This document shows positions 1,504-27,054 of a stretch of DNA of 40,294 nt, in pieces (the first letter of the stretch is position 1; the number at the start of each line of letters is the position of its first letter). Below the pieces are notes generated by a model. It was not told where the DNA came from. It worked only from the letters and a program-made list of their open reading frames with translations, and made no database searches. A program made the position numbers and the translations under genes. The stretch is from sequence record MT862763.1; one strand, 5' to 3'. Source of the stretch: Escherichia phage vB_EcoP-U8.

Positions 1504-1546
1504 TAATCATGAAGGCCACGACTTTGAGTCATGACCTTGAGTCTAA
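1504..1546 (-). promoter_or_regulatory. Conserved leader stem-loop element, copy A (candidate RNase III processing site, R1.1 position)
   Basis: Plus-strand TAATCATGAAGGCCAC...ATGACCTTGAGTCTA; RNA can pair AAGGUCAU with GUGGCCUU; same element at 10689..10726 and 34865..34905. Confidence 0.4.
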
Positions 1547-1566
1547 TCCTATAGTGATAGTTTAGG
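1544..1566 (-). promoter_or_regulatory. Phage RNA polymerase promoter (phi1.1 position)
   Basis: RC reads CTAAACTATCACTATAGGATTA; CACTATAGG core as in T7 promoters; upstream of gene 1.1. Confidence 0.75.
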
Positions 1567-1641
1567 GTTAACCTCTTCTGCGTTGGATTAAAGTGAATAC
1601 TGCGAGTGCTCCCAGCCACAGGGCCAGTAACTGTATGTCTG

Positions 1642-1857
1642 TCATTTGGCCTGCTCCAGCTTGGACACTGCGTCCTTCAGGTACTTCTCGTGGCTGGACT
1701 CGACCAGATATACAAGAGTCTTGAACGGGATGTTAAGCTGCTTGGACATCTCGGTAGGGATGACCGTGGTCTTCACCAGACCCTTGCCGTTGTGTTCTGT
1801 TACGGTCACGATTTGAGTCCCACCATTAACGCCAGTATGCTTGTGTGCAAATTTCAT
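1642..1857 (-). CDS. hypothetical protein (between gene 1 and 1.1)
   Basis: 71 aa ORF with SD AAGGAGAG upstream of ATG. Confidence 0.5.
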   Translation of the reverse strand: MKFAHKHTGVNGGTQIVTVTEHNGKGLVKTTVIPTEMSKQLNIPFKTLVYLVESSHEKYLKDAVSKLEQAK

Positions 1858-24891: not shown

Positions 24892-25457
24892 TAGTCCCTC
24901 CCGATGTCGGACATCATGTTGTAGCGACCAGTGTCCATCTCGTACTCCATCACCTGCTGGTAGAGTTCTGCTTCCTGCTCACGAAGGTACAGTTCAGACT
25001 CTGGGCTACCGAAGAACTTAGCGTTGAACTCACGGCTAGCCTTGGTAACGATGTAGTCACGGAATACTACAGGCATCTCAGCGAACGGTTTCATCTCCAC
25101 CAGTTCGACTGTAATTGGTCCAGTGAAGGTCGTGGACTGAGTGGACAGGTCATAGAGATAGCCCCCCATGTTGCTGTAGTAACTGGTAGCACCAGCAGTC
25201 ATGACCCGAAGGTAAGACGGCAGGAATCGAATCCTATTGTCTTGGACATCAGGTGTCAGGACAGCAGCTTCGTTGATGTTAAAGTTCCAGCCTTTAGCTT
25301 GGACCTGACGATTGACACGATGCAGGATACGTTGAGCGTTCGAGACGTCAGCGTTACCTTCGTCAAGCTGTAGGACTGCTGGTTCACCGATAGCTGCTAA
25401 CATATCGTTGATGGCATCTAAGTCATCGTTAGCATTCAGTGGAATGTATTGAGCCAT
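24891..25457 (-). CDS. Tail tubular protein A (gp11-like)
   Basis: 188 aa; matches T7 gp11 as recalled (IVTKASREFNAKFFG, MEYEMD). Confidence 0.9.
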   Translation of the reverse strand: MAQYIPLNANDDLDAINDMLAAIGEPAVLQLDEGNADVSNAQRILHRVNRQVQAKGWNFNINEAAVLTPDVQDNRIRFLPSYLRVMTAGATSYYSNMGGYLYDLSTQSTTFTGPITVELVEMKPFAEMPVVFRDYIVTKASREFNAKFFGSPESELYLREQEAELYQQVMEYEMDTGRYNMMSDIGRD

Positions 25458-25571
25458 AGGTTTACTCCTTAACGGTCATAGGCGCTAGACGGTGAGCTGG
25501 ACAGCAGGTACGCCCAGAATAAGACGAATAGTGCTAACCCTGTGTAAATAAGGACCATAGTCCCTCCTTAA

Positions 25572-25610
25572 GCAAAAAAACCCCTCAAGCACCCGAAGGC
25601 ACCCAAGGGG
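25572..25610 (-). terminator. Rho-independent terminator, T-phi equivalent after capsid gene
   Basis: RC: CCCCTTGGGTGCCTTCGGGTGCTTGAGGGG followed by TTTTTTTG; close to T7 T-phi as recalled. Confidence 0.85.
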
Positions 25611-25616
25611 TTTCAA

Positions 25617-26929
25617 TTAGTTTGTGAAAGATACGTTGAAGGAACGCACAGGCGTACCGTCATACCCAACAATCACCAGACCTTCCACGCCAGAGGTGGC
25701 CTTGAAGTAGAGACTGTTGGTTCTACGGGAGTAGCTAACACCATCAGGCGTAGCCACCTCAAGCAGCGACCAATCGGTCACATCTGAAAGCTCAGGGAAG
25801 TCAACCTTCAGGCTGGTTCCCACCGTAGAACTATACGTCTCTAAGGTAGGACCCTCTGTAGAGAGGGCCTTAAAGGTCGTTAACCCGCTGACGCCGCTGT
25901 GAAAACCAGTGCGCCTGCTGCTTCTGGACGCAGACCACCGTGACCCATAGCGTACTTACCAACAATCAGGTCGCCCTGAGCATCGACGTCACGGTCACGT
26001 TCCAGCGCCAAGTCACGCAGCTTAACAGTACCTACAGCAGAACGGTGAGAGAACAGGCCCACAACGTTGTCCAGAGCAACTTTAACATCACCAGTAGCAG
26101 TAGCTGGGAAGGCGTGCTTCTGACCAGTCGCAATAGTGATACCATCGGCACCACGAGTTTCCCCAGCACCACCCTGAGTCAAGTGTGGAACTTCAACAAC
26201 CACGAAGCCCATTACGTTACGGATGTTACCAGTCTCTGGGTCAATCAGCGCAGCATAGTTAGCAGCGTTCGGCATCAGAGCCGCGAGGATTGCAGAGTAG
26301 TTGTCCGGCGTGGTGTAGAAGTAACGGTCGCCAGCAGGAACGTAGTTGGATGTCAGCTTCGCACGAGCAATGGTCAGTTGACCGATGATTGCTTCACCCA
26401 GCTTAGCCGGAGTGTTCAGGTCTGCTTTAGTACCAACTTCCAGCACAGACGCTTTGCCAAGACCAGCGATGTTTTCATCAGATGCAGCCGGTAGGTTACA
26501 CAGAATAGCCATCTCAGCCAGTACCGCACCATCGGCAGCGATAGCCAGAGCTTCGCCCAACTGGTTGGAGTACTCGCCAGCCACGTCATAGTGGTTCATC
26601 GCGTCTTCAATGTCGAAAATCATCACATCGGCAGTCAGCAGACCATCAATGGTAATCACTTTCTCGGTATGTTTGATACCTTTACGCTTATCGGACAGTC
26701 GCTCACCCGGAGCCAGATACACACCAGAGGTGCGACCCATGACCGGGAACTGAGCAGACTTACCGTTCTGAATGGTACGGACAATATGCTTGTCAGCAGT
26801 TACAGAGCGGCGAGTGAATGCTGTCAGGACTTCGCCAGCAAAGACCTTCAGGAACAACGCCAGAGCGTCGGAACCAGATTTGCCTTTACCTTGGTCTGTA
26901 CCAACTTTCTGACCCGGAACGTTTGCCAT
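25617..26929 (-). CDS. Minor capsid protein 10B (10A plus C-terminal extension via -1 frameshift)
   Basis: -1 frame is open from the slippery site at 25901..25907 to a stop at 25617, about 95 extra codons; T7 makes 10B this way. Confidence 0.6.
25880..26929 (-). CDS. Major capsid protein 10A
   Basis: 349 aa; extensive match to T7 gp10A as recalled (KHTEKVITIDGLLTADV, ALMPNAANYAALIDPE, AMGHGGLRPEAAGA). Confidence 0.96.
   Translation of the reverse strand: MANVPGQKVGTDQGKGKSGSDALALFLKVFAGEVLTAFTRRSVTADKHIVRTIQNGKSAQFPVMGRTSGVYLAPGERLSDKRKGIKHTEKVITIDGLLTADVMIFDIEDAMNHYDVAGEYSNQLGEALAIAADGAVLAEMAILCNLPAASDENIAGLGKASVLEVGTKADLNTPAKLGEAIIGQLTIARAKLTSNYVPAGDRYFYTTPDNYSAILAALMPNAANYAALIDPETGNIRNVMGFVVVEVPHLTQGGAGETRGADGITIATGQKHAFPATATGDVKVALDNVVGLFSHRSAVGTVKLRDLALERDRDVDAQGDLIVGKYAMGHGGLRPEAAGALVFTAASAG
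25901..25907 (-). other. Putative -1 ribosomal frameshift site G GTT TTC near end of 10A
   Basis: Heptamer GGTTTTC in 10A frame (CTG GTT TTC) 7 codons before the stop; same heptamer I recall for T7 gene 10. Confidence 0.55.
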
Positions 26930-27031: not shown

Positions 27032-27054
27032 TCTCCCTATAGTGATAGTTTAGT
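27032..27054 (-). promoter_or_regulatory. Phage RNA polymerase promoter (phi10), full consensus with GGGAGA start
   Basis: RC: CTAAACTATCACTATAGGGAGACC; transcript 5' end can form GGGAGACC...GGUUUCCC stem as in T7 phi10 leader. Confidence 0.85.

Follow-up and report, generated by a model that had tools for sequence, protein, structure and literature searches.

The question raised by this locus is whether the major capsid gene of Escherichia phage vB_EcoP-U8 yields, in addition to the capsid protein that ends at the gene's own stop codon, a longer product with a C-terminal extension read in the −1 frame. In the window (the whole stretch of DNA that was analyzed, 40,294 nt), the region around gene 10 was 99% identical to LM33_P1-type Kayfunavirus phages (K1F-like, T7 family), matched 457 phage records, and carried all of its genes on the minus strand. 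The sequence makes it highly probable that the longer product, 10B, is made by the gene 10A/10B −1 ribosomal frameshift of a T7-family phage, here of a Kayfunavirus resembling LM33_P1; that the slippage takes place in this phage itself is what we infer. The elements of gene 10 and of the proposed shift site were as follows.

27032–27049, minus strand: sequence ACTATCACTATAGGGAGA, similar to a promoter of a phage RNA polymerase and equivalent to phi10, upstream of gene 10 (exact match)
25880–26929, minus strand: gene 10A, zero-frame open reading frame encoding the 349-aa major capsid protein (36.3 kDa)
25882–25880, minus strand: stop codon TAA of gene 10A, zero frame
25901–25907, minus strand: slippery heptamer G_GTT_TTC at codons Val342-Phe343 of 10A, in register with 10A, the proposed −1 shift site

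The product of gene 10A belonged to the Gp10A-like proteins of Pfam (E-value = 1e-104), and it matched two solved capsid structures in the PDB, the chain 9vvq_I (E-value = 4e-214) and the T7 10A protein 2xvr_A (E-value = 3e-145). Sites similar to ACTATCACTATAGGGAGA with no more than three mismatches were found seven times in the window, all on the minus strand, versus 0.04 expected; the sequence at 27032–27049 is listed as a putative phage promoter on the basis of its likeness to the promoters of the T7 family.

The 3′ end of 10A reads ...GCA CTG GTT TTC ACA GCG GCG TCA GCG GGT TAA, with six sense codons between TTC and the TAA stop, TTC being the seventh codon before that stop. This is where the first-pass annotation had placed the motif G GTT TTC (25907–25901, minus strand), and its identification of the heptamer with the frameshift site of T7 gene 10 is also supported, since the same homologous codons are occupied in T7, K1F, and the window, within the common context ...GGLRPEAAGA[L/V]VF..., and Atkins et al. 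2016 (PMC5009743) give G_GU as the form that X_XX takes in T7 gene 10. Across both strands of the 40-kb window, GGTTTTC was found a single time, versus about four expected.

The conservation of the site was assessed in reference phages (T7, K1F, T3, CR8, KP32, JA10, and others) together with 68 viral contigs, which yielded 65 distinct sequences with a slip site. The heptamer was GGTTTTC in 62 of them, CGTTTTC in two, and AGTTTTC in one, so that the first position is C or A in three relatives. G_GUU_UUC is an imperfect match to the X_XXY_YYZ pattern. The valine codon was GTT and the phenylalanine codon TTC in all 65 sequences, unlike the four-fold degenerate Ala and Gly codons flanking the heptamer, which were variable: the synonymous Ala codons two and four codons upstream were split three ways, 24/7/34 and 17/29/19, respectively. 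The invariance of GTT and TTC among variable synonymous neighbors shows that the site has been kept beyond the needs of the encoded protein.

Downstream of the heptamer, the −1 frame gave the following features.

25617–25901, minus strand: −1-frame extension specific to 10B, 94 codons and TAA (from translation, conservation, and openness of the frame)
25570–25614, minus strand: T-phi-like intrinsic terminator right after the 10B stop, with CCCC at 25610–25607 (terminator scan)
across the shift site, minus strand: predicted 10A/10B junction peptide ...PEAAGALVFHSGVSGLTTFK
within the extension, minus strand: ALSTEGPTLETYSSTVGTSLK, an example of a peptide predicted from the −1 frame

Sense codons of the −1 frame run from 25901 to 25620 and are followed by TAA at 25619–25617, so that the frame of about 95 codons, described in the first-pass annotation as open to a stop at 25617 just before a T-phi-like terminator, consists of 94 codons and a stop codon, with three bases between the stop and the terminator. 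The predicted 10B protein comprises 343 + 94 = 437 aa (45.9 kDa). The number of extension codons after the shift was 56 in T7, 48 in K1F, and 94 in the window; the extension had been expected to be roughly twice as long as that of T7, and it is indeed longer, but by a factor of about 1.7 rather than 2. For a single sequence, a stop-free run of 94 codons would arise by chance with a probability of about 0.009 according to base composition and 0.019 according to shuffles, and the same −1 frame within the body of 10A contained 28 stops in 349 codons, with a longest open run of 44.

In 65 of 65 distinct sequences of relatives, the extension directly adjoins the heptamer in the −1 frame, with no stop codon between them, despite indels in the linker. 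The −1 frame was likewise open to the heptamer in two further loci, L055 and L067. The length of the extension among relatives ranged from 91 to 103 codons, and the open frame was found in Kayfunavirus, Przondovirus, Ningirsuvirus, Caroctavirus, and other lineages. A record with stops in the frame (L023, OP272493) was considered as a counter-example and discounted, as indels break up all of its genes, the capsid gene included. Relatives lacking an open −1 frame had been named beforehand as the observation that would speak against a frameshift; every usable relative keeps the frame open.

The substitution pattern corresponded to a protein-coding frame. For the extension overall, dN/dS was 0.14–0.24, and the first, second, and third codon positions accounted for 23, 18, and 57 variable sites, respectively. 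The first start codon of the −1 frame, which is also its sole internal start, is GTG at 25823, and between the 10A stop and this codon lies a bridge of 20 codons without a start codon. Within the bridge, dN/dS in the −1 frame was 0.07–0.24, with 11 variable sites at the third position versus 6 and 5 at the other two; beyond the bridge, it was 0.14–0.17. Thus, the −1 frame is protein-coding from the slip site on, being open in every usable relative and under purifying selection that includes the start-less bridge, and coding selection on such a bridge can be explained only by ribosomes arriving from gene 10.

The same data bear on the alternative of a small gene in its own right, "10.1", in which the ORF downstream of 10A would be translated from GTG 25823 into a free decoration or minor capsid protein of 68 aa. 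Most records of relatives do list the ORF by itself, under the name "hypothetical protein" or "minor capsid protein"; it has a PHROG of its own (phrog_7473), it is described in PMC7693777 as encoded downstream of the capsid gene, and some lineages have an ATG that overlaps the stop of 10A or lies close to it (TAATG in L015 and L022). However, no Shine-Dalgarno sequence precedes GTG 25823, where the duplex with the anti-Shine-Dalgarno sequence had an energy of −2.9 kcal/mol, versus −7.3 for gene 10, −8.7 for gene 11, and −12.6 kcal/mol for a nearby small ORF, and the products proposed by gene callers for a separate ORF ranged from 54 to 87 aa with an inconsistent choice of start. An independent gene would also account neither for purifying selection in the −1 frame on 20 start-less codons upstream of its GTG, nor for the ORF being always in the −1 frame and stop-free to the heptamer, nor for the synonymous invariance of GTT_TTC, and we consider it very unlikely. 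The window has ACG at the place of the ATG of TAATG in the L015 and L022 lineages. Free expression of the domain in the TAATG lineages is possible.

Still less probable is slippage of the phage RNA polymerase on the run of four T's, by which some transcripts would lose one U and the ribosome itself would not shift. The site does contain a short homopolymer, TTTT, and the protein outcome would be indistinguishable by sequence alone; however, the G at position 1, retained in 62 of the 65 sequences, matters for the re-pairing of tRNA and not for a polymerase. Polymerase slippage, moreover, usually needs runs far longer than four T's. The event in T7 gene 10 is treated in the literature as ribosomal (PMC5009743). 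The least credible explanation is that no 10B is made and that the open −1 frame merely persists, unexpressed, between the capsid gene and the terminator with which it is inherited, for although T7 10B is dispensable (PMC11482910) and half of the domain has been lost in one relative (L016), dN/dS of 0.14–0.24 and an identity of about 44–50% across genera indicate continuing selection, whereas an unexpressed frame would gather stops; the same frame within the body of 10A has 28 in 349 codons.

Returning to a 10B extension made by ribosomal frameshifting, two parts were distinguished in it.

25842–25901, minus strand: linker, extension residues 1–20 (HSGVSGLTTFKALSTEGPTL), predicted to be disordered (pLDDT 48–52)
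25620–25841, minus strand: predicted seven-strand Ig-like beta-sandwich, extension residues 21–94 (matches phrog_7473; no Pfam family)

Of the 20 linker codons, six overlap the end of 10A, and the other 14 are the first ones of the 20-codon bridge. The suggestion of the first-pass annotation that the extension could be a decoration domain is consistent with the confident all-beta Ig-like model, which is a predicted structure; the predicted fold has the seven strands in two sheets and the size of about 70–90 residues by which phage Ig-like domains are defined. The extension matched phrog_7473, a PHROG with no assigned function, with an E-value of 3e-36 over profile positions 2–82 of 82, and no credible Pfam domain was found in the extension or in nine members of its family. 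A tblastn search with the extension retrieved 454 phage records, of which about 135, with an identity of at least 60%, were from Kayfunavirus and its allies; the other 319 (below 60%) were mostly from Przondovirus-type Klebsiella phages (about 41–45% among the matches listed), with Dickeya and Pectobacterium phages in addition. Across genera, the amino acid identity of the extension was kept at about 44–50%.

Membership in known Ig-like families was examined separately. Assignment to Big_2 (PF02368) was rejected: the extension had no Pfam match, and the extension of T3, itself matching Pfam Big_2 with an E-value of 4e-10, had no BLAST match with it and an hhalign probability of about 5%. Assignment to BACON (PF13004 or PF19190) was also rejected, these families being unlisted for the nine family members even at E-values up to 10. 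Alignment of the extension family with one BACON repeat in hhalign gave a probability of 80% (E-value = 1.4e-5), and a remote kinship with BACON, as suggested by this profile comparison, is a lead that stays below the level of membership. An exhaustive profile search with the extension family returned only 38 representatives. Ten of these were short (25–84 aa), and the two inspected (P0028 and P0030) were homologues of the extension; one was a tandem-BACON protein, aligned by hmmsearch across nearly the whole profile. The remaining 27 were long multi-repeat proteins, which were rejected as homologues because they match just a 25-residue motif (profile positions about 42–67); in P0031, the sole multi-repeat match whose sequence was inspected, the repeat was NALYF...G.ELWKYDGTT, of the ELWxxDG type. 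Such matches were judged to represent a resemblance in a short beta-hairpin motif and not domain homology.

The borders of the extension coincided with breaks in similarity to K1F. The terminator hairpin (25614–25577) has 17 pairs followed by a T-run, is near-identical to that of K1F and clearly homologous to T-phi of T7, and its motif AAACCCCTTGGG...CTTGAGGGGTTTTTT is kept in the window, K1F, T7, KP32, and CR8. The terminator with its CCCC directly follows the 10B stop in all five. Identity to K1F ends one base past the heptamer and sets in again nine bases ahead of the terminator motif (AACTAATTG|AAACCCC), and the segment between these conserved ends is 277 nt in the window (25899–25623) and 139 nt in K1F. 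As identity to K1F is confined to the two flanks of the segment, the extension behaves like a module that can be exchanged between two conserved signals, the heptamer and the terminator. This behavior fits the published idea of mobile Ig-like domains, according to which they move by illegitimate recombination and are expressed through whatever recoding is available (PMC5009743). In one relative (L016/L036), the C-terminal half of the domain has been deleted, and residue 53 of the extension is fused to the T-run of the terminator and to the next small ORF.

The proposed course of expression is as follows. The gene 10 mRNA would begin at the promoter (about 27049) and end at the terminator (about 25577). 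On it, most ribosomes would read ...CUG GUU UUC ACA... and stop at 25882–25880, giving 10A (349 aa), whereas a minority would slip back by one base on G_GUU_UUC, with the P-site tRNA-Val moving from GUU to GGU and the A-site tRNA-Phe from UUC to UUU. The slipped ribosomes would then read CAC AGC GGC... for 94 codons to the stop three bases short of the terminator, giving 10B. In T7, the efficiency of frameshifting is about 10%. Because 10B carries the whole capsid fold, it would be able to co-assemble with 10A, and the floppy linker of about 20 residues would tether the Ig-like domain outside the head. T7-family capsid proteins have their C-terminus on the outer face of the head, and this is the basis of T7 display; the GFP fusion of K1F is consistent with such an exposure, and we infer a similar exterior display for the Ig-like domain. 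By analogy with other phage Ig-like domains (PMC5009743, PMC13320782), its most likely role is an accessory one, namely, weak multivalent binding to the carbohydrates of bacterial or mucosal surfaces. The extension is probably dispensable in the laboratory; 10B of T7 has been reported to be so (PMC11482910), and a natural deletion in IMGVR_UViG_2974604219 suggests that a phage lacking the domain would be viable.

RNA signals that could stimulate the shift were sought around the heptamer and further downstream. No known frameshift element was found with Rfam at a permissive threshold within 25400–26100, where there were two sub-threshold chance matches, and no supported structure occupied the canonical position of a stimulator, 5–9 nt past the end of the heptamer. 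For 14 Kayfunavirus sequences, RNAalifold proposed a stem that begins 6 nt past the heptamer (columns 13–24 with 110–119), but the stem is not supported, since it contained no compensatory change and was broken in divergent members. One local structure was retained as a feature.

25849–25869, minus strand: local RNA hairpin GGCCCUCUCUACAGAGGGUCC, 31 nt past the heptamer and 10 nt past the 10A stop (MFE fold)

The MFE fold containing this hairpin had z = −3.06 for 136 nt, and the hairpin is kept in Kayfunavirus relatives, with unconvincing covariation. In the Przondovirus relatives (n = 38), a hairpin of 18 bp was found at +20 to +62 after the heptamer, a spacing too long for a classical stimulator. 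In this hairpin, 99.1% of cells were paired, versus 35–52% with the partners slid; two pairs change on both sides via wobble (AU 22, GC 14, GU 2 and CG 23, UA 10, UG 3, CA 2), and the covariation score was reached by none of 500 shuffles. For T7, the terminator CCCC, situated more than 200 nt beyond the site, is reported to contribute to gene 10 shifting through an unexplained long-range effect (PMC5009743). By our count, the distance from the slip site to the terminator CCCC was about 290 nt in the window and about 180 nt in T7. Inspection by eye of the surroundings of the slip site for a G-rich stretch that could pair with CCCC revealed no conserved pairing: T7 has GGGGG and the window CGGGT, with nothing comparable in Przondovirus or CR8.

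A broader interpretation can be put forward, to which we give little probability: the extension may represent an undescribed Ig-like family (without a Pfam entry and possibly remote kin of BACON) that has spread as an exchangeable cassette between the conserved heptamer and terminator to 450 or more phage genomes from several genera, and the Przondovirus hairpin together with the terminator CCCC might form part of a non-canonical long-range stimulator. If this were true, comparative data such as those on the hairpin and CCCC could open the distal effect in T7, long without an explanation, to testing.

The frameshifted feature itself is already known, as a joined 10B is annotated in Peacock (98% identical here) and CR8, and T3 is the textbook Ig-like case. 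Meanwhile, most relatives mis-annotate the extension as a separate protein, under the labels hypothetical, minor capsid, or structural protein with Ig domain. The correct model for therapy phages of the LM33_P1-type Kayfunavirus and Przondovirus is one joined 10B, and the practical value of this lies in curation and engineering: the C-terminus of 10B is a natural display point, and the Ig-like domain that this clade is predicted to carry on a linker shows engineers where a payload can go. The possible accessory adhesion bears on the behavior of gut and urinary E. coli phages at mucosal surfaces.

Among the closest known systems is the 10A/10B −1 frameshift of T7 (Condron, Atkins & Gesteland 1991, as cited in PMC5009743 and PMC11482910), for which the T7 reference record carries a joined 10B CDS. 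T7 and the window share G_GUU_UUC at homologous codons and an extension that ends just before a homologous T-phi with CCCC; however, the T7 extension has 56 codons and is not Ig-like (PMC5009743), whereas the 94 codons of the window are predicted to be Ig-like, and no sequence similarity was found between the two extensions. K1F, the type species of the genus, has the same heptamer, the same 30 nt upstream of it, and a near-identical terminator, but its 48-codon extension is T7-like, the cassette of 277 nt in the window replacing the 139 nt of K1F. Use of the −1 frame has functional support in K1F, where g10b::gfp, with GFP placed at the end of that frame, gave a stable fluorescent phage (PMC6277420), and in Kvp1, mass spectrometry showed 10B arising from a −1 shift at TTTTCA (PMC2579914).

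Two phages resemble the window in the extension itself. In Peacock (MK903279), a joined minor capsid protein is annotated, and its extension covers the same span with an identity of 97%. The Citrobacter phage CR8 (NC_023548) has a joined 10B with the same heptamer and an extension that is 50% identical (E-value = 5e-27), although it belongs to another genus, Caroctavirus, and its extension has 91 codons. The CR8 record contains a "tttt" feature with the note "matches in mass spectrometry analysis" and a predicted −1 internal frameshift, with no specification of extension or junction peptides, and the CR8 genome paper gives no mass-spectrometry details.

Other Ig-like domains displayed by phages are known from the C-terminal domain of lambda gpV, the T4 Hoc-like and N4 capsid decoration proteins, and BACON domains; the extension showed no significant sequence relationship to any Ig-like family of Pfam. 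It differs from lambda gpV, where the Ig-like domain is in-frame, and from T4 Hoc, which is a separate protein. Phage Ig-like domains appended by frameshifting have precedents (PMC5009743, PMC13320782), and gp10B of T3 is alike in carrying an Ig-like domain on the capsid protein in this way (PMC5009743); however, the slip region of T3 reads ...CTC CCA AAG... and has no GTTTTC, and its domain belongs to the Big_2 family. The extension in the window would be a second, unrelated Ig-like module joined to T7-family capsids by frameshifting, in agreement with the view of such domains as mobile (PMC5009743).

Variation in the -1-frame tail of the long capsid protein 10B (the extension; 94 codons in the window) included, in the locus of IMGVR_UViG_2974604219_000001 (L016/L036), a natural deletion at approximately positions 1660–1790 of L016, which joined extension residue 53 to the T-run of the terminator and the downstream small ORF, with loss of the C-terminal half of the predicted Ig-like domain and of the terminator stem. 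Provided that the deletion does not stem from faulty assembly, this phage can do without both the Ig-like domain and the terminator.

In the Przondovirus/Ningirsuvirus relatives (L018–L020 and L042–L080), the stop codon of the major capsid protein 10A was closely followed by an RNA hairpin:

Columns 27–46 with 52–69 of the alignment of these relatives (A3), +20 to +62 nt downstream of the heptamer: 18-bp RNA hairpin.

Pairing was retained in 99.1% of cells in A3, compared with 35–52% for slid controls; two base pairs showed compensatory changes via wobble intermediates, and the covariation score was matched by none of 500 shuffles. The linker residues encoded under the hairpin (T/V/A/M and S/P) changed together with the pairing. 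It should be noted that the distance between the hairpin and the proposed shift heptamer is too long, exceeding the range of classical -1 frameshift stimulators.

In a divergent Kayfunavirus lineage (loci L015 and L022 and proteins P0001–P0003), the 10A stop codon overlapped an ATG of the -1 frame within the motif TAATG (equivalent to approximately 25883..25879 of the window); termination–reinitiation could therefore be a further route, in these phages, to the domain as a free protein of 87 aa. In the window, in contrast, ACG stood in place of this ATG.

In the search with the extension profile, positions ~42–67 were matched by large bacterial multi-repeat proteins (P0031, P0033, P0035 and ~25 others), which probably reflects a common beta-hairpin motif and not homology; the repeat of P0031, NALYF..DG..G.ELWKYDGTT, was similar to NSLYFKATSGVEGLVIVGYDGT of the window's extension. 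The alignment with one tandem-BACON protein, P0032, spanned almost the whole extension domain. In Enterobacter phage EcpYZU01 (NC_048135, L021), the RefSeq feature at 1518..1751 of the locus, annotated as an "XRE family transcriptional regulator", covers the 10B extension on the opposite strand and is almost certainly a mis-called antisense strand of this conserved sequence.

Two further kinds of element were identified in the window:

1544, 7958, 14155, 22250, 27032, 28020 and 30859, minus strand: copies of ACTATCACTATAGG.
25468..25557, minus strand: 29-codon ORF MVLIYTGLALFVLFWAYLLSSSPSSAYDR, flanked by the T-phi-like terminator and gene 11.

The seven copies, counted at up to three mismatches from the phi10 copy, were all on one strand, versus 0.04 expected in the whole window, and presumably represent promoters for the RNA polymerase of vB_EcoP-U8. 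The 29-codon ORF, hypothetical in the annotations of close relatives, was preceded by the strongest Shine–Dalgarno sequence of the region (AAGGAGG, -12.6 kcal/mol), and its product looks like a small membrane peptide. This ORF was absent from phage K1F (L005), where gene 11 directly followed the terminator. Relative to K1F, the 10B extension (25623..25899) was a replaced cassette of 277 nt, versus 139 nt in K1F, and the cassette edges lay one base past the heptamer and nine bases short of the terminator motif; thus, two members of the same genus have unrelated 10B tails.
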